Below, in pieces: positions 1,067 to 63,321 of a DNA stretch of 64,000 nucleotides. The stretch is from Planctomycetota bacterium (GTDB lineage: Bacteria; Planctomycetota; UBA1135; UBA2386). How positions within the stretch are numbered: the first letter of the stretch is position 1; each line of letters begins with the position of its first letter. Under the pieces are notes generated by a model. The model worked only from the letters and a program-made list of their open reading frames with translations. It did not search any database and was not told the origin of the DNA. Location of the stretch: the NCBI GenBank assembly GCA_947501605.1, contig CANMWZ010000001.1, positions 288,001 to 352,000 on the forward strand. Direction: 5' to 3'. The translations under genes and the position numbers were made by a program.

Positions 1067-1897
1067 ATGGGCCTTCGCGTCAACTCCAACATCGCATCGA
1101 TCAACGCGCAGCGCTCGCTGTCGCAGACCACAGACCGGTTGCAGGCGAACTACCGCCGCCTCTCTACGGGTCTGCGAATCTCGACGGCCGCCGACGATGC
1201 CGCTGGTCTTGCGATCTCCGAGCGCTTCCGCGCCCAGATCCGCTCGACCAACCAAGCGATTCGCAACGCGCAGGACGGCATCTCCCTGACGCAGACGGGT
1301 GAAGGTGCGCTGAACGAAGTCAGCAACATCCTGATCCGCATGCGCGAACTCGCGATCCAGGCCAGCAACGGCACGGTCAGCTCGCAAGACCGCGACACGC
1401 TCAACCAGGAGTTCGCCGATCTGATCGACGAGGTCGACCGCATCGCGCAGTCGACGACGTTCAACGGCGTCCGTCTGCTCGACGGCACCGGCTCGACACT
1501 GACCTTCCAGGTTGGAACGGGCACGACCAGTGGTGTCGACACCATCCAACTGAACACGTCCGACACGCTCTCCTCGACGCTCGGTCTGTCGTCCCTGGAC
1601 ATCGGCAGCACCGGGGTCACCTCGACGGCCGTCGACATGGTCGACAGCGCAATCAACTCGGTGAGCCAGGTGCGCGGCCAGTTTGGCGCCGTGCAGAACC
1701 GCTTGACGGCGACGATCGCAAACCTGCAGATCCAGGTCGAAAACACCAGCGCAGCCGAGAGCCGCATCCGCGACGTCGACGTCGCGATCGAAACCGCGCA
1801 GCTGACTAGAAACTCCATCCTCCAGCAGTCGGCGATTGCGATTCTGAGTCAGGCGAACACGCAGCCCCAAGCCGCCTTGCAGCTGCTACAAGGCTGA
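1067..1897 (+). CDS. fliC: Flagellin (short, essentially D0/D1 only)
   Basis: N-terminal MGLRVNSNIASINAQRSL...RLSTGLRISTAADDAAGLAISE; C-terminal SRIRDVDVA...QANTQPQAALQLL. Confidence 0.97.
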   Translation: MGLRVNSNIASINAQRSLSQTTDRLQANYRRLSTGLRISTAADDAAGLAISERFRAQIRSTNQAIRNAQDGISLTQTGEGALNEVSNILIRMRELAIQASNGTVSSQDRDTLNQEFADLIDEVDRIAQSTTFNGVRLLDGTGSTLTFQVGTGTTSGVDTIQLNTSDTLSSTLGLSSLDIGSTGVTSTAVDMVDSAINSVSQVRGQFGAVQNRLTATIANLQIQVENTSAAESRIRDVDVAIETAQLTRNSILQQSAIAILSQANTQPQAALQLLQG

Positions 1898-55282: not shown

Positions 55283-56377
55283 CTACTTCGCCTTCGCCAG
55301 CGCCAGGACCAACTGTTCGGCAACCGCCGTCGCCGCGTCACCGTCGTGGCCGCGATAGCGAACCTTGCCTTCGGCATCGAGGACCACGATCGTCGGCCAA
55401 CCACTGACCGCCCAGTCGGCGGAGATCTCCGGTTTGCCTTCGCGCTTGTTCTGGAAGCTCCGCCAGTTCAGCTGGTTTTCGGCAATCGCCTGCTTCGCCT
55501 TCGCTGGTGTGTCACTGTTGACCCCGATCAGAGCGAACGGCTTGTCCTTCATGCGTTCCACGAGCGACCGCTCGTGCGGGTACAGTTCCCGGCAAGGACC
55601 TCACCAATCGCCCCAGAAGTCGACGAACACGACCTTGCCGCGGTAGTCGCTGAGCTTGAACGCGACGCCGTCGAGATCGGAGCCTTCGATCTCGGGCGCC
55701 GTGACCCCGATCGCGAAGTGCTCCTTCTCCACCAGTGTGGCTTGGATCCTGCTCTGCAAGCGCGGGTCGCCACTCGACGCCGCGGCCTTGGTGAGCGCTG
55801 CCTTGGCGCTCTGGAACTCCGGCGACTTCGCGTCCGCGGTCTCGAGTGTCGGGCCATGCTTGGCGTAGACGACCCAGCCGAGCACCCCGGGATCGACCGC
55901 GTCGCGTTCGAGCGCGGTCAGAAACTCGGTGGCCTTCCTCGCGCCCGCCAGTTGTGGCAGGTAGGCGAGCGACGGGCTGAGTTCCGCGAGCACCGCACTC
56001 TTCACGTGGTACTGCCGCAGCAGATCGAGGATCTCGCCGTACTCCGCCTCGCCCTTGCTGGTCCGGAAGGCGAACACGAGCAGCGAACACTGCTCATCGC
56101 CCACGTAGTCCTTGGCGGCTGCGAGGGTCGTGCTGCGGAGTGCCCCGAAATCGGGCTCCATCGACATCGCCGGAATTGGCGTGCCGCTCGCTGCCGCCGT
56201 CTCGGCGGCCTTCTGGGCTGCGACCGCGGCCTGCCGCCACGCCGCAACGATGCGCTGCTGTTCCTTCTGCAGCTCGACGAGGCGAGTCTTGATGTCGGGT
56301 TTGCTCACGGGGGCGTCTTGCGCCGCAAGCGAACCGAGCAAGACCGCGGCGCCAAGCCATGCGGGGATTGGGTTCAT
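55283..56377 (-). CDS. Secreted TlpA/redoxin-family oxidoreductase, putative selenoprotein (UGA at 55601-55603, UxxC)
   Basis: APEIEGSDLDG..FKLSDYRGKVVFVDFWGDW-TGA-GPCRELYPHERSLV...WPTIVVLDAEGKVRY reads as one continuous frame; SECIS-like hairpin downstream. Confidence 0.88.
55559..55576 (-). promoter_or_regulatory. Bacterial SECIS-like hairpin
   Basis: CACGAGC-GGUC-GCUCGUG, a perfect 7-bp stem whose G-initiated loop begins 31 nt after the UGA. Confidence 0.7.
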
Positions 56378-56466
56378 GGTGCCCAGCATCTGGCATGCCG
56401 ACGGCGACAGCAAGCGGGCTGACGGACGGTCGCTATGCTCGACCGCTTCCCACTCGGCGGCGGATC

Positions 56467-59400
56467 GTGCCTCTCTCCAACTTCCACCCCACAATCCAGC
56501 GCTGGTTCGGGCTCGAGCTCGGCAAGCCCTCACCGCCGCAGCGAGAGGGGTGGCCGGCCATCGCCCGCGGCGACCACGTGCTCCTCGCTGCGCCCACGGG
56601 CTCGGGCAAGACGCTGGCGGCCTTCCTGTGCGCGCTCGACCAGCTGCTCAAGCTTGGCCCAGCGCTCACGACCGCGACACACGTCGTCTACGTCTCGCCT
56701 CTGAAGGCGCTGTCGAACGATGTGCAGAAGAACCTGCAAGCCCCACTCGCAGCCCTGCGGGCGCTCGACCCTTCGCTGCCCGAGCTCTCGGTGCAAGTGC
56801 GGACGGGCGACACTCCGGCACGAGAACGGGCAGCCATGCTGCGCACACCACCGCACATCCTTGTCACCACACCCGAGTCGCTCTACCTCCTGCTGACCAC
56901 GGCGCGCGGACGGCAGCAACTGGCAACCGTCCGCACCCTGATCGTTGACGAGATCCACGCGCTCGCGCGCGACAAGCGCGGCAGCCACTTCGCCCTGTCG
57001 GCCGAACGACTCGACCGGCTCGTGCAGCAGCACGGCGGTCGCCTGCAGCGCATCGGGCTGTCGGCGACGCAGCGCCCCATCGCCGCGACCGCGGCGTTGC
57101 TGTGCGGGACCGACCGAGCCTGCACGATCGTCGATGCCGGACACCGACGCGAGCTCGACTTGGCGCTCGAACTGCCCTCGGCGCCACTGGACACCGTTTG
57201 CTCCACCGAGACGTGGAACGAGATCTTCGCGCGCACCACCGAACTCATCCTGCAACACCGCACGACGCTGGTGTTTGCCAATACGCGCAAGATGACCGAG
57301 CGCATTGCCGCGCGCCTCGCGGAGCGCCTAGGCAAGGAGCACGTCACCAGTCACCACGGCTCGCTGTCCAAGCAGCGGCGCCTGGATGCGGAGCAACGGC
57401 TGAAGCGCGGCGAGCTCAAGGCTCTGGTCGCCACGGCTTCGCTCGAACTCGGCATCGACATCGGTGAGGTCGATTTGGTGATTCAGATCGGGCCAACGCC
57501 ATCGATCGCCACGTTCTTGCAGCGCGTCGGCCGGGCGGGTCACGGCCTGCACCGCACACCCAAGGGCCGCATCGTGCCCCTGACGCGCGACGAGCTCGCC
57601 GCGGCGAGTGCGCTGTTGCTCGCCGTGCGCCGTGGCGACCTCGACCGCACTGTGCAACCGGTCGCACCGCTCGACATCCTGGCACAGCAGATCGTCGCCG
57701 TGTGCTGCGACGAGGCGCTCCCTGAAGACGACCTGTTCGCGTTGGTCCGCGGCGCGCACCCGTTCCGCAACCTCGAGCGCGCCCGCTTCGATGCCGTCCT
57801 GGCAATGCACGCGGGTTCGCGCAGCGCCTTGCTGCATCGCGACCCGATCCATCGCATCGTGCGGGCGACCAAACGCGCACGCCTGTGCGCTGTGACCTGC
57901 GGCGGCGCGATCCCGGATGTCGCCGACTACCGCGTCGTGCTCGATCACGACGACAGCCTCGTGGGCACCGTCAACGAGGACTTCGCCATCGAGTCGTCGA
58001 TCGGTGACGTCTTCCAACTCGGCAACACCAGTTGGCAAGTCGTCCGCATCGGCCAAGGCATCTTGCGGGTTCGCGATGCCCACGGCGTACCGCCGAGCTT
58101 GCCGTTCTGGCTCGGCGAGGCCCCGTCGCGCAGCCACGAACTCGCCGCCGCACTCAGTGACGTTCGCACGCACGGCGAGGACTCATCGTGGCTGATGCAG
58201 CACTGCGGCATCGGCGGCGACGCCGCCGAACAACTGTCGACCTGGCTGCAAGATGGCAAGCGCGCGTTGTCGGCGATGCCCTCGCACGAGTGCCTTGTGC
58301 TCGAGCGGTTCTTCGACGAGTCCGGTGGCCAACAACTGGTGGTGCACTCGCCGTTTGGTGCGCGGCTGAATCGCGCCTTCGGCCTCGCACTGCGCAAGCG
58401 CTTCTGCGTCGGCTTCGGCTTCGAACTGCAGGCCGCCGCCAACGACGAGGCCATCGTTATCTCCCTCGGCCCGGTCCACAGTTTTCCGTTGGCCGATGTC
58501 TTCTCCTACCTGCATCCGAACTCGGCCCGCGACGTGCTCACGCAAGCACTGCTGCCGGCGCCGATGTTTCAGACCCGCTGGCGCTGGAATGTCACCCGGT
58601 CCTTGTTGGTCGAACGTTGCCGTTCAGGGCAGCGCGTGCCAGCGCCGCTGCTGCGCTTCCGCGCCGACGATGCGCTCGTCGCCGCATTCCCGGCTGCGCA
58701 GGCGTGCCCCGAGACTCTGCCCCCTGGGCCGATCGATGTCCCCCTCGAACATCCGCTGGTCCTGCAGACCATCTCGGACTGCCTTCACGAAGCAATGGAC
58801 GTAGATGGCCTTCTCGGTCTGCTCGAACGGATCCGCCGCGGTGCGATCGGTCTCGTCGCCGTCGACACCAACACGCCGTCGCCATTCGCTCAAGGCATCC
58901 TGCACGCGATGCCCTATGCGTTTCTCGACGACGCGCCGCTCGAAGAGCGCCGCACCCAAGCCGCCATCACTGCGCAGCGAGGCGCTCGGCCAGCGGCCGC
59001 AGCCGACCACGACCTCGACCCGCACGCTCTGGGGCTGGTCCAAGACGAAGCCTGGCCCGACCCTTGCTCGCCGGAGGAACTGCACGAAGCACTCGGCTGG
59101 ATGGGTTGGCTCGAGAACGACGAGCTACGCCCGGAGTGGCGCCCGTTCCTCGAGACGCTGATTGGTGACGGTCGCGCCGTTGCCGAAGGCATGCGCTGGT
59201 TTGCCGCCGGACAGTCGCGCGAAGCCAAGGTCCTCTGGGAGGGGCGCCTGCAAGCTGTGATCCCGGTGTTCGTCGATGAACTAGCCGACGATGACCGCAC
59301 GGCGTTGTTGCACCTGGAAAGCGCGGGCTCGGCGATGCGCGCGCGCGCGTTTGGCCGCGAGATCTTCTGCCATCGCCGGCTGCTCGCCCGAGTCCGGCGC

Positions 59401-60342
59401 TACATGCTCGAACGCCTGCGCGCGGCGATCCAGCCAGTCAGCAAAGCCGACTTCGCCGACTTTCTGCGCCGCTGGCAGGGCCAAGAGCAGGAGCCGGGCA
59501 GGCACGGTCCACACGGACTGCGGCTGACGCTGCAGCAACTCGCCGGGCACAGCGCGCCGGTCGAAGCGTGGGACGAGGAGATCCTGCCGCAACGGCTTTC
59601 TGGCTACACCCGCGAGGTGCTCGACCAACTGACGCTCGCCGGCGAGTTCGTCTGGCTCCGTCTGTGGGGCAGCTGGCGCGGTCCACTGAGCAAGGCGCCG
59701 CTGTCGATCGTACCGCGCGAGGATCTGCACCTCTGGCTCGAGCTCCCGCTCGAACCGCCCGACGCGACGGCGCTCGGCTCGCACGCGAGCGCGCTGCGCG
59801 ACTTGCTGCAGCAGCGCGGCGCATCGTTTCCAACGGATCTTCGGACCTGGAGTCGCATGCTGCCGAGCCAATTGGAAGACGGCCTCGCCGAGCTCCTTGG
59901 CTGCGGTTTCGCGACCTGCGACTCGTTCGCTGCCGCGCGCCAGTTGGCGGTGCCACCTAGTCGGCGTCGCCTACCGCTGCACACCGTCGGTCGCTTCCAG
60001 CTGATCGAGTGGCCGCCAGCAGCTCGCGCCAGCGACGCCGCCATCGAACATGCCGCGCGATCGATTCTGCGCCGGTTCGGAGTGGTCAGTCAAACTCTGC
60101 TGCAAGAAGAACGCGTGCCGCTGCCGTGGCGTCTCTTGTTGCGCTCCTTCCGTGCGCTCGAGTTGCAGGGCAAGGCGCGCGGCGGCAGGTTTGTGTCGGG
60201 ATGGACCGGCGAGCAGTTTGCGGACCTCGAAGCTGTGCCGGCCCTGCGGGAGCAGCGTCGAAGCTCGGAACGCGCCCGCGCGCTCGCCGACCTGCGACCA
60301 ACCGCGCGCCAGTCCACGGCATCATCTGCTGGGGACAGCTGA
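56467..60342 (+). CDS. lhr: Lhr-family DEAD/DEAH-box helicase with C-terminal winged-helix (HTH_42-like) region
   Basis: APTGSGKT, SPLKAL, TTPESL, DEIH, SAT, HHGS, LELGID, QRVGRAGH and C-terminal GRFV...GEQF. Confidence 0.9.
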   Translation: MPLSNFHPTIQRWFGLELGKPSPPQREGWPAIARGDHVLLAAPTGSGKTLAAFLCALDQLLKLGPALTTATHVVYVSPLKALSNDVQKNLQAPLAALRALDPSLPELSVQVRTGDTPARERAAMLRTPPHILVTTPESLYLLLTTARGRQQLATVRTLIVDEIHALARDKRGSHFALSAERLDRLVQQHGGRLQRIGLSATQRPIAATAALLCGTDRACTIVDAGHRRELDLALELPSAPLDTVCSTETWNEIFARTTELILQHRTTLVFANTRKMTERIAARLAERLGKEHVTSHHGSLSKQRRLDAEQRLKRGELKALVATASLELGIDIGEVDLVIQIGPTPSIATFLQRVGRAGHGLHRTPKGRIVPLTRDELAAASALLLAVRRGDLDRTVQPVAPLDILAQQIVAVCCDEALPEDDLFALVRGAHPFRNLERARFDAVLAMHAGSRSALLHRDPIHRIVRATKRARLCAVTCGGAIPDVADYRVVLDHDDSLVGTVNEDFAIESSIGDVFQLGNTSWQVVRIGQGILRVRDAHGVPPSLPFWLGEAPSRSHELAAALSDVRTHGEDSSWLMQHCGIGGDAAEQLSTWLQDGKRALSAMPSHECLVLERFFDESGGQQLVVHSPFGARLNRAFGLALRKRFCVGFGFELQAAANDEAIVISLGPVHSFPLADVFSYLHPNSARDVLTQALLPAPMFQTRWRWNVTRSLLVERCRSGQRVPAPLLRFRADDALVAAFPAAQACPETLPPGPIDVPLEHPLVLQTISDCLHEAMDVDGLLGLLERIRRGAIGLVAVDTNTPSPFAQGILHAMPYAFLDDAPLEERRTQAAITAQRGARPAAAADHDLDPHALGLVQDEAWPDPCSPEELHEALGWMGWLENDELRPEWRPFLETLIGDGRAVAEGMRWFAAGQSREAKVLWEGRLQAVIPVFVDELADDDRTALLHLESAGSAMRARAFGREIFCHRRLLARVRRYMLERLRAAIQPVSKADFADFLRRWQGQEQEPGRHGPHGLRLTLQQLAGHSAPVEAWDEEILPQRLSGYTREVLDQLTLAGEFVWLRLWGSWRGPLSKAPLSIVPREDLHLWLELPLEPPDATALGSHASALRDLLQQRGASFPTDLRTWSRMLPSQLEDGLAELLGCGFATCDSFAAARQLAVPPSRRRLPLHTVGRFQLIEWPPAARASDAAIEHAARSILRRFGVVSQTLLQEERVPLPWRLLLRSFRALELQGKARGGRFVSGWTGEQFADLEAVPALREQRRSSERARALADLRPTARQSTASSAGDS

Positions 60343-60870
60343 GACCACCTTTGCCCAGTCGATTGCGTCTCCGGCCGCGCGATCGACCTGTCGGTGCACC
60401 AGCAAGCCCTGCGCGTCGAGCACGACGACGCCCCCCTGTTGCCACGGGTCGCCTTGCACCTTGGTCTGACGGTGCCCGGCAAGCAGAGCCCGCAGCATGT
60501 TGAGGATCGCACCCAATCGCACAACCGTCCAAAGGCCGCGCCGCATCCCTGCCAACGCGAAGGCACGGCGCGTCGGATCACTCAGTACCGGCAAGCCGTT
60601 CGCGTGCTCGCGCGCAAACGACGCGGCCATCAGCGGTGCGCCCGTGCCGACGAAGACGATGCGCGCACCCTTGCCAAGGATGGACGCCGAATGCGAGCAG
60701 ACCTCGGCAGCACGTTCGCGACAGAACAGACAGCCGAAGTGACGCACGAACACCACCACCGCGGGACCAACGAACGAACGCAGACTCGTGGCCACGCCAA
60801 TGCTGTCGAGGAGTGGAGTGTCGAGCAACGACGCAGTGCCTGCGTCTCCAGCGAGAACCGAGCGAGTCAT
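60322..60870 (-). CDS. AhpC/TSA peroxiredoxin-like (PRXL2/FAM213-like) protein
   Basis: VFVRHFGCLFCRE, LSDP and GDPWQQGG. Confidence 0.88.
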   Translation of the reverse strand: MTRSVLAGDAGTASLLDTPLLDSIGVATSLRSFVGPAVVVFVRHFGCLFCRERAAEVCSHSASILGKGARIVFVGTGAPLMAASFAREHANGLPVLSDPTRRAFALAGMRRGLWTVVRLGAILNMLRALLAGHRQTKVQGDPWQQGGVVVLDAQGLLVHRQVDRAAGDAIDWAKVVSAVPSR

Positions 60871-60914: not shown

Positions 60915-61500
60915 AAACAAAAAAACCGTGGCGAAGCACGTCCGTCACCTGCTTGACGCAGGCCACTTCTCCTCATAACCGCGACCTGCGCCTGACACCG
61001 TGAACACGTTCGCCGACCCGATGACTCCAGTAGCACCACCAACCAGAGGTCGAATCGACGGCGCGTTCCCGGCTTGCAGAGCCGACGGACGTGCTTCGAC
61101 TACACGGGGGGGGTCGCCCCCCTGGCCGATCCCAGGCTCGCCAGTCACTCGAACATGCGGATCCGATTACCGGACGCCTGCCCGAGCGACCTTCTGCCGA
61201 AGGCTCGCTCCCGATCACGAACATCGCCGGGTAGGCACAGGCGTTCGAGAGTACGCCTCTGCCCGGATAACCCGGACGACACTCCCGCTTGGCAACTGCC
61301 GCAAAGCAGCACCGCGCGGAGATACGAAGGTTGCCTGCCTCGAACTGCACGACCGCAACGCCAGATGGCGACGGCTCGACCGCGGCAAAGCGGGAGCTCG
61401 AACGACACCGAGGAAGTGCCGCGGACGATGAAGTGAGGGAGGACATATGAGAACAACAACTCCGGCCGATAGTGGCCGAGAGCGCAGGAAGAACTCTCCG
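60915..61500 (-). ncRNA. Candidate large structured non-coding RNA (family not recognised)
   Basis: Gene-free interval with nested stems, including a perfect 15-bp inverted repeat (60932-46/61084-98), TGn-TATGCT upstream on the minus strand, and a U-tract at 60915-25. Confidence 0.45.
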
Positions 61501-61509
61501 AGCATAGCA
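61501..61509 (-). promoter_or_regulatory. Extended -10 promoter-like motif
   Basis: Minus strand TGC-TATGCT pointing into the structured interval. Confidence 0.4.
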
Positions 61510-61710: not shown

Positions 61711-63321
61711 ATGACCACCGCGCCATCCACCAGCACGCATGAAGCCTCCGTTCGTCTCCTCGGTGCGGTATCCCCCGCACAGAAACGGATCGTCGATGAC
61801 GGCGCGTTGGCGTTCGTCGTCGATCTCGAGCGCCGCTTCGGCAGCCGCCGCCGCGAACTCCTAGCGCTGCGCCAAGAGCGCCAGCGACGCCTCGATGCCG
61901 GCGACACGCCGGACTTCCTGCCGGGAACTGCAGGCATCCGCAGCGGTGAATGGCAGGTGGCCCCGGTGCCCACGGAGCTGCTCGATCGCCGTATCGAGAT
62001 CACCGGGCCCACCGACCGCAAGATGGTCATCAACGCGCTCAACAGTGGCGCGTCGGTGTTCATGGCGGACTTCGAAGATAGCCTCGCACCAACTTGGCAG
62101 AACGTCCTCGACGGCCAACAGAACCTGTTTGACGCCGTGCGCCGCACCATCGGCTTCACCGATGCGGCGACCGGCAAGCAATACGCGCTGTCGACGACGC
62201 CAGCCGTCTTGTTCGTCCGACCGCGCGGCTGGCACCTCGAAGAGAAGAACCTGGAGATCGATGGTCGCCGCGCCTCGGCGTCGCTGTTCGACTTCGGCCT
62301 GTTCTTCTTCCACAACAGCAAGGAGCAGGTCGCGCGCGGCACAGCGCCGTACTTCTACCTGCCGAAGATGGAGAGTCACCTCGAAGCTCGGCTGTGGAAC
62401 GACGTGTTCCGATACGCGCAAGAACGGCTGGGCCTCGCCCAAGGCACGATCAAGGCGACGGTGCTGATCGAGACGATTCTCGCTGCGTTCGAGATGGACG
62501 AAATCCTCTACGAACTGCGGCAGCACAGTGCCGGCCTCAACTGCGGCCGCTGGGATTACATCTTCTCGTTCATCAAGAAGTTCCGCGCCCACCAGGGGCG
62601 CGTGATCCCGGATCGGGCGAGCGTCACGATGACGCAGCACTTCCTCCGCAGCTACAGCCAGTTGCTGATCAAGACCTGCCACCGTCGCGCAGCGTTCGCG
62701 ATGGGTGGCATGGCCGCGCAGATCCCGATCAAGAGCAACGCCGCCAAGAACGAGCAGGCGCTCGCCAAAGTCCGCGCCGACAAGAGCCGCGAAGCCAACG
62801 ACGGTCACGACGGCACGTGGGTCGCTCACCCGGGTCTCGTCGCAATCGCCCGTGAGGAGTTCGATCGCGTTCTCGGAACGCGGAAGAACCAGCTCGACGT
62901 GCTGCGTCTCGACGTCGACGTCCGCGCCACCGACCTGCTGCAAGTCCCGGAGGGCAAACTCACCGAGGCTGGGCTGCGCCAGAATCTCGACGTCGGCATC
63001 CAGTACCTCGAGGCCTGGCTCTCCGGCAATGGCTGCGTTCCGCTACACGACCTGATGGAGGACGCGGCGACCGCCGAGATCAGTCGCGTACAGCTCTGGC
63101 AATGGCTGCACCACGGCGCGAGTCTCGACAACGGCCGCCGCGTTGACGCGGCGTTGATTCGGACCACCCTCGCTGAAGTGCTCGCGTCGCTGCAGAGCAC
63201 CCTTGGTCCCGCCACCTACGAGAAGCGCAGGTTCGACCTCGCCAGCACGCTCTTCCTCGACATGGTGTTGGGCAAGCAACTGCCCGACTTCCTCACGACC
63301 GTCGCCTACGAACACATCTGA
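61711..63321 (+). CDS. aceB: Malate synthase A
   Basis: [33 protein letters not shown] and [12 protein letters not shown]. Confidence 0.97.

Follow-up and report, generated by a model that had tools for sequence, protein, structure and literature searches.

A candidate large structured RNA with a long AUG-initiated frame in two genera of uncultured Planctomycetota

The intergenic region examined here, which lies in a window of 64,000 nucleotides from a Planctomycetota genome, very probably contains a real structured RNA gene. Its predicted product is a stand-alone RNA of about 580 nt that has four covarying domains and a pseudoknot, and the explanation we tentatively favor is that ribosomes load onto this RNA and unwind it, the peptide so produced being irrelevant. 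According to the accessible text of PMC5737381, bacterial RNAs of large size and high complexity are uncommon and in many cases show unusual biochemistry, and the present one would be a new RNA of ROOL size in a phylum for which we found no description of such an RNA. Its pseudoknot covaries, and probing and cryo-EM could begin at once on RNA transcribed in vitro. Should the frame signal discussed below prove real, the RNA would also represent a kind of RNA whose function depends on translation without a useful protein.

A structured RNA between the redox gene and aceB

The RNA interval (60915-61500, minus strand) sits between a peroxiredoxin-like gene on the same strand, called the redox gene below, and the divergent aceB on the plus strand, and it is single-copy in its genome.

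60322..60870, minus strand: AhpC/TSA_2 (peroxiredoxin-like) redox gene, Cys form here, with a -10-like box 8 nt before the ATG
61501..61509, minus strand: extended -10-like promoter element, with a transcript start predicted near 61494
61711..63321, plus strand: malate synthase gene aceB, divergent neighbor, start codon inferred from homolog alignments

A preliminary description, made from the sequence alone, had proposed for this interval an unclassified large non-coding RNA or a long leader of the redox gene, and the features it named are present where it had placed them: the promoter-like 9-mer at 61501-09, the U-tract at 60915-25, complementary stems, and a G6/C6 hairpin with 6/6 pairs. 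Comparison with shuffled sequences, one of the checks that it had suggested, gave a folding z of -5.0 for the minus strand with 0/100 shuffles as good, and of -3.7 for the plus strand; the strand asymmetry favors the minus strand, as seen from G-U pairs and from a GNRA loop that changes from GCGA to GCAA. Substitutions within the RNA accumulate at a rate of 0.105-0.12, about one third of the synonymous rate of the neighboring gene (0.336, G004/L116).

The absence of a tmRNA, RNase P, SRP, T-box, or cobalamin-riboswitch signature, which had been noted from the sequence, is borne out by Rfam 15: no family, including ROOL, GOLLD, OLE, raiA, group I/II introns, T-box, and riboswitches, matched the element at E values up to 10 or six homolog loci at E values up to 5. 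A housekeeping RNA in disguise was rejected, with the tmRNA of the genome lying on contig C2, its RNase P RNA on C5, and its SRP RNA elsewhere on C1. The probable 6S RNA, which is distinct from the 60915-61500 element, looks typical but is sub-threshold on C67 (L008 1501-1691, minus strand, the same as G000:C67:2020-2210); it scores 37.7 bits against an Rfam cut-off of 46.4, and default annotation would miss it.

T-box RNAs have a specifier loop upstream of a UGGN antiterminator bulge. When a T-box-like sensor was considered, a UGGU was found in a hairpin loop upstream of the loop that carries an invariant UGA, and Rfam was silent. A CsrB/RsmZ-type sponge was likewise not indicated, as CsrA occurs in 0/5 genomes and the RNA has one conserved GGA loop instead of repeated ones. 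In its predicted fold, the element combines what characterizes large structured bacterial ncRNAs, namely a length above 350 nt, several covarying domains, and a pseudoknot. Conservation, covariation, strand asymmetry, and the failure of Rfam to match it all speak for an unclassified large ncRNA.

The conserved 3' core

The 3' part of the RNA forms the best conserved domain.

61108..61127, minus strand: invariant GGCCAG, then a G-run/GNRA/C-run hairpin; C8 in this assembly, C7 in other sequences
60926..61107, minus strand: Domain 4 (conserved core), comprising a three-way junction and, as closing stem, P1 (61084-107 paired to 60926-46); covariance model R1
61032..61041, minus strand: tip loop of stem P2 (61002-70), 10 nt long, G/U-rich, and invariant in 8/8 sequences, with compensatory and wobble changes in the tip stem
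60955..60992, minus strand: stem P3 with 12/12 pairs, its loop containing invariant UGAGGAGA (60968-75), from homolog comparison and a pairing check
60915..60925, minus strand: U-tract, a possible 3' end in this genome only, with 2-3 U at the homolog positions

The core (61127-60926) folds with z values of -3.7 to -9.0 in 8/8 homologs, whereas the best of 40 equally sized control windows scored -2.8. The collection of homologous intergenic regions, also suggested beforehand, yielded compensatory changes in 19/75 pairs of the core and, among six homologs, in 30/76 pairs of the upstream domains, counts that 0/500 shuffles reached in either case, the structures having been derived from the same alignments that were used to score them. 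The stem formerly proposed to close a third domain (60932-46/61084-98) has 15/15 pairs and a pair probability of 1.0 in the full-length ensemble, and it falls within P1. The long U-tract noted beforehand is seen in this genome only.

No perfect Watson-Crick complement of either invariant loop was found among the best pairings in partial 16S rRNA (lacking its 3' end), SRP, RNase P, and 6S RNAs, nor did the genome offer a telling intergenic complement.

The C run at 61108-61115 is eight long in this assembly and seven long in the other homologs and the closest database proteins, for which an assembly slip, a strain variant, and phase variation are candidate causes. In G002 (L002 ~1483-1523, minus strand), P1 is followed by an inverted copy of its own 3' arm, which gives a competing 18-bp hairpin. 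The G-run/GNRA/C-run hairpin also turns up by itself at unrelated intergenic sites in L114, L115, and L120, where it is possibly a repeat hairpin of other bacteria.

Upstream domains and the pseudoknot

Upstream of the core, a 5' hairpin, three domains, and a pseudoknot are predicted.

61462..61479, minus strand: 5' hairpin with 6/6 pairs, also predicted in homologs, where the loop usually contains CCUCAC
61282..61396, minus strand: Domain 1, a variable, lineage-specific multi-stem domain that aligns poorly between lineages; closing stem 9/9, pair probability 0.95
61223..61280, minus strand: Domain 2, a long stem with interruptions and an 8-nt apical loop (61245-52); covarying helices 3-5, with 4/4, 6/6, and 5/5 pairs in this genome
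61207..61252, minus strand: pseudoknot between loop 61245-52 and strand 61207-14; 7-8/8 pairs in 9/9 sequences
61143..61191, minus strand: Domain 3, a long hairpin (61143-55/61179-91) with 13/13 pairs and a 4/4 cap; helices 7-9, 15/29 pairs compensatory

The six-homolog alignment of this part was made without the present genome and G018, and the present genome maps colinearly onto it. The pseudoknot is 100% paired in the six homologs, with two compensatory pairs, and its last two pairs switch together between lineages. Energy folding of single upstream segments is weak, with z values from -3.6 to +1.8, so that covariation carries the support for this part of the fold. Among the stems drawn previously, the closing stem of domain 1 (61282-90/61388-96, 9/9 pairs) and the 15-bp stem within P1 are the only ones that survive in the full-length ensemble; the inner stem of domain 1 (61291-96/61330-35) is complementary at 6/6 positions. 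Those of the former domain 2 (61148-54/61243-49, 7/7; 61176-84/61228-36, 8/9; 61184-94/61199-210, 9/11 in the register proposed) can pair by complementarity alone but have a pair probability of 0, and they clash with the covarying structure, in which 61245-52 pairs with 61207-14 and 61179-91 with 61143-55.

Transcript ends and the relation to the redox gene

A -10-like hexamer, picked by eye, lies 365-382 nt before the conserved core in 8/8 homologs, and from this constant distance a transcript of ~570-585 nt is predicted; the element at 61501-09 has no -35 box, and a scan for sigma-70 sites gave 0 full sites. The redox gene occurs in 50/91 family genomes and the RNA in 6, and among 30 redox-gene loci fetched from genomes, the RNA was found in the 5 carrier loci and was absent from 25. 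A loose -10 pattern, for which a chance rate of ~15% was estimated, stands 5-8 nt before the candidate start of the redox gene in 18/25 non-carriers and 7/8 carriers (hand count), which suggests that the redox gene may be transcribed leaderlessly from its own promoter, carriers included. Family-wide, the redox gene looks leaderless in 25/33 loci (L025-L054).

Neither the length nor the sequence of the spacer between the RNA and the redox gene is constant, and carriers share no conserved terminator or RBS switch ahead of the redox gene. Because the redox gene often occurs without the RNA and has a -10-like box of its own, and because the spacer is variable and the U-tract unique to this genome, we infer that the RNA is a stand-alone one, which appears likelier than a leader of the redox gene. 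Of the two roles first proposed, the unclassified large RNA thus stands, with a qualifier on the term "non-coding" as described below, and the leader becomes the weaker branch.

In its most concrete form, the leader would be a ribosome-coupled attenuator, in which translation melts the P1 5' arm and so decides between P1 and a local 3' hairpin. Such a device would fit the position of the RNA, which lies on the same strand directly upstream of the redox gene in every carrier with flanking DNA, as well as the alternative 3' hairpin that most carriers have (with 18 bp in G002) and the U-tract of this genome. The U-tract is, however, not conserved, the spacer is variable, the redox gene keeps a leaderless-type -10 box, and most family members have the redox gene without the RNA; we consider the attenuator improbable.

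The AUG frame

A long frame runs through most of the RNA.

61441..61446, minus strand: AUGUCC, where the long frame starts; in most homologs it also pairs with GGAC(A/G)U as the 5' arm of a helix
60973..61446, minus strand: open frame of 157 codons that ends at the loop UGA in this assembly, with no protein-level selection

The earlier statement that the interval holds no credible coding sequence remains valid as far as a protein gene is concerned. A protein gene on either strand was rejected, with a dN/dS of 0.64-0.96 for the frame (against 0.13-0.42 for the neighbor), no codon periodicity (substitutions even across codon positions, GC by codon position flat), and no Pfam match; the frame of G018 has no protein homolog. 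The invariant P2 loop is read in three different frames, one in this genome, one in G018, and one in the rest, and therefore the peptide is not conserved. A conserved AUG at 61446 does, however, open a long frame through the RNA; this frame and the pseudoknot were both absent from the preliminary description.

The conservation of AUGUCC was noted before any frame was computed. Its helix with GGAC(A/G)U is 85% paired in six homologs, the partner is absent in this genome, and the only change of the start codon is AUG to UUG in G001. The AUG is in frame with the loop UGA in 7/7 full-length DNA homologs, giving 153, 157, 158, 159, and 160 codons. Six database proteins, a set biased towards open frames, end at the same loop stop, and two of them, P0003/P0004, add the length 150 and start with MS; overall, frame lengths range over ~150-166 codons. 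The AUG-to-UGA distance is a multiple of three in 5/6 lineages (hand binomial ~0.02). Stop-triplet events fall in the AUG frame in 2/25 cases, with a binomial p of 0.0035 that is somewhat inflated, as the count treats related lineages as independent and includes one site three times, and the chance of a stop-free AUG frame is 0.02-0.11 per sequence. In every sequence that includes the start, the frame is open for at least 129 codons, crosses domains 1-3 and the P1 5' arm, and ends inside the core, at a stop whose position varies between sequences.

Counter-examples accompany this pattern. In three of nine sequences (G003, L117, and G001), a TAG interrupts the frame at about codon 130. P0008, which is 99% identical to the present frame over the aligned part, and P0009, which is 73% identical, have one C fewer in the hairpin; their frame reads past the loop UGA and continues a further 28 nt to the next UGA (~60945-47), so that the in-frame state of this assembly is a homopolymer variant. 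No Shine-Dalgarno sequence precedes the AUG, such a sequence being found in 230/1258 long genes of this genome, and start-context scores are middling in 6/8. On these comparisons, translation of the frame seems moderately supported, and the apparent translation signal is present at the level of the frame and not of the peptide, with the counter-examples named.

The frame may instead be accidental in a stop-poor sequence of 67% G+C, and the molecule a purely non-coding ornate RNA, that is, an RNA-only complex or an RNP scaffold comparable with ROOL, GOLLD, OLE, or raiA. Ranking close behind the explanation that we prefer, this one is possible, albeit somewhat doubtful. It agrees with the average size of ROOL, given as 581 nt in the accessible part of PMC5737381, with the multi-domain fold, the pseudoknot, and the invariant loops, and with the frame failures in P0008/P0009 and the three TAG homologs, and the helix of AUGUCC can explain the conservation of that motif. 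A 5' CCUCA could kiss the UGAGG loop in 7/8 sequences (by eye, with no covariation), and self-pairing of the palindromic GGCC is conceivable, a behavior reported for OLE (PMC12286853, in part). Against it stand the depletion of in-frame stops, the multiples of three, and the retention of the AUG in this genome despite the absence of its pairing partner.

The invariant UGA, which is often in frame, raises another possibility, namely that the RNA is a selenocysteine-sensing leader in which SelB recodes the loop UGA in the presence of selenium, the resulting read-through acting as a switch for the redox gene. SelB is encoded in 6/6 carrier genomes and tRNA-Sec in this one, the redox gene has an in-frame TGA in 44/50 family matches, that of the carrier G018 included, and several carriers have a hairpin with its apex at about +16 after the UGA. 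The best hairpin differs between carriers and has no fixed position, however; the redox gene is of the Cys form across the whole genus, read-through would end 28-238 codons further on with no fixed relation to the next start, and TGA is the commonest stop of this genome anyway. A SECIS consensus (PMC13188914, as far as its accessible text gives it) was passed by 8/8 carriers and 29/29 native sites and also by 167/200 ordinary TGA stops, and hence does not discriminate. Because P0008 and P0009, the closest relatives of this genome, are out of frame at the UGA and three homologs stop earlier, selenocysteine sensing by the RNA is unsupported, and we rate such a leader as even less probable than the attenuator.

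Distribution of the RNA

Syntenic homologs were found in five genomes and three further contigs. A DNA search of 60 relatives detected the RNA in 4/4 other genomes of the genus and in one genome (G018) of a second genus, plus one more match of 23 nt that is attributable to chance. A pattern scan of metagenomes gave nine loci, four of them true and three of these new sequences, the other five (5/9) being chance hairpins, and a scan of a genome collection (35/64 parts covered) gave 120 loci, of which three matched the covariance model with scores equal to those of known carriers; the two true matches with a visible title are Planctomycetota. The order aceB, RNA, redox gene, lhr is identical in every carrier as far as flanking DNA reaches, and G018 groups with the genus in the redox-protein tree as well as in the AceB tree.

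At the sensitivity of these searches, no homologs were found outside the two-genus clade. A covariance-model search of 91 family genomes scored 24 candidates per genome, and in five non-carrier family genomes, for which 150 candidates each were scored, the best E value was 0.029. The G018 RNA used as a DNA query against the 91 genomes gave only short chance matches outside the clade, and four matches of ~30 nt in 400 genomes of the phylum included none confirmed as the RNA. No homolog was found in viral contigs (0, 2, and 4 matches), phages, or plasmids. A tie of the RNA to aceB was rejected, since 24 non-carrier aceB loci contained the RNA in 0/24 cases. The RNA is thus known, from these sequence searches, from two genera of uncultured Planctomycetota, with only about six independent lineages among the homologs, and the narrow range limits its general importance.

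This narrow distribution, together with the appearance of the RNA along with the junction of aceB and the redox gene, might suggest a domesticated remnant of a mobile element such as an ORF-less intron, a MITE, or a retron-type RNA. The RNA is, however, single-copy and located at the same site in all carriers, it matches no intron family, the flanking genes include no reverse transcriptase or transposase, and phages, plasmids, and viral contigs gave no match; a mobile origin is the least probable of the explanations weighed here.

Possible mode of action

If the RNA is a stand-alone molecule translated for the sake of the frame, its action may be envisaged as follows. The -10 element at 61501-09 would drive a transcript that ends at the foot of P1, near 60920, and the RNA would rest in a fold in which the AUG is paired away. 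Once the AUG is freed, a ribosome would traverse domains 1-3, the pseudoknot, and the P1 5' arm; its release would always occur within the core closed by P1, at stops +60/63, +153/156, or +180 from the start of the core, and it would never pass the P1 3' arm. Translation would thus refold or gate the core, in which binding probably takes place at the two invariant G-rich loops. As a first guess, their partner might be a C/U-rich RNA, for example the 16S anti-Shine-Dalgarno sequence or a C-rich small RNA. A bolder version, which we regard as unlikely, is that this tertiary-folded RNA is translated almost end to end for its frame and not its peptide, and that the transit of ribosomes together with the fate of the UGA in its invariant loop, either release or read-through with selenocysteine, would switch the core.

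We found no description of such a hybrid of ornate RNA and mRNA in the literature. The search, which covered sources other than subscription journals and included a term search of the preprint 10.64898/2026.10.21.760802, returned no such RNA from the accessible texts; the supplementary motif tables of discovery papers could hold one.

Comparison with known RNAs

OLE RNA is about 600 nt long, and trpL, tnaC, secM, and vemP are examples of leader-peptide attenuators and long regulatory leader ORFs. Like the latter, the RNA described here has an upstream frame that might reshape RNA structure when translated, but it has no conserved peptide, sensing codons, arrest motif, terminator, or RBS switch, and its predicted tertiary structure extends across the whole frame. 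With tmRNA, it shares the combination of a pseudoknotted RNA and a reading frame, but it has no tRNA-like ends, its frame starts at an AUG and is ~15 times longer, and the tmRNA of this genome was located separately.

ROOL and GOLLD are, as far as the accessible text of PMC5737381 and PMC12286853 describes them, similarly large, multi-junction, pseudoknotted bacterial RNAs with variable linkers and a function that is unknown. The present RNA differs from them in lacking an Rfam match, in being chromosomal, vertically inherited, and clade-restricted, and in carrying a long open frame; a phage, prophage, or tRNA-island context is not seen, and the window contains no tRNA. With OLE it has the size class in common as well as a palindromic tetramer (GGCC) available for self-pairing (PMC12286853, in part), but again no Rfam match. 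The raiA RNA resembles it in a single locus, a conserved core closed by a bulged P1 whose sequence is highly conserved, a pseudoknot, and variable peripheral stems; its average length is ~200 nt, it is found chiefly in Bacillota and Actinomycetota, and its core contains two pseudoknots (PMC12968392, accessible part), whereas the present RNA has its pseudoknot upstream of the core and no Rfam match.

Selenoprotein candidates in the genome

In 44/50 family matches of the redox gene, a conserved hairpin lies ~26 nt downstream of the in-frame TGA, and the Cys form found throughout the present genus is a predicted Sec-to-Cys change. The genome encodes at least four UxxC proteins. At 55283-56533 on the minus strand of the window, an in-frame TGA within a W-U-G-P-C motif divides a thioredoxin-like protein, which is likely a selenoprotein cut in two by plain ORF calling, and three more UxxC thioredoxin-fold selenoprotein candidates lie on the minus strands of C15, C18, and C32.
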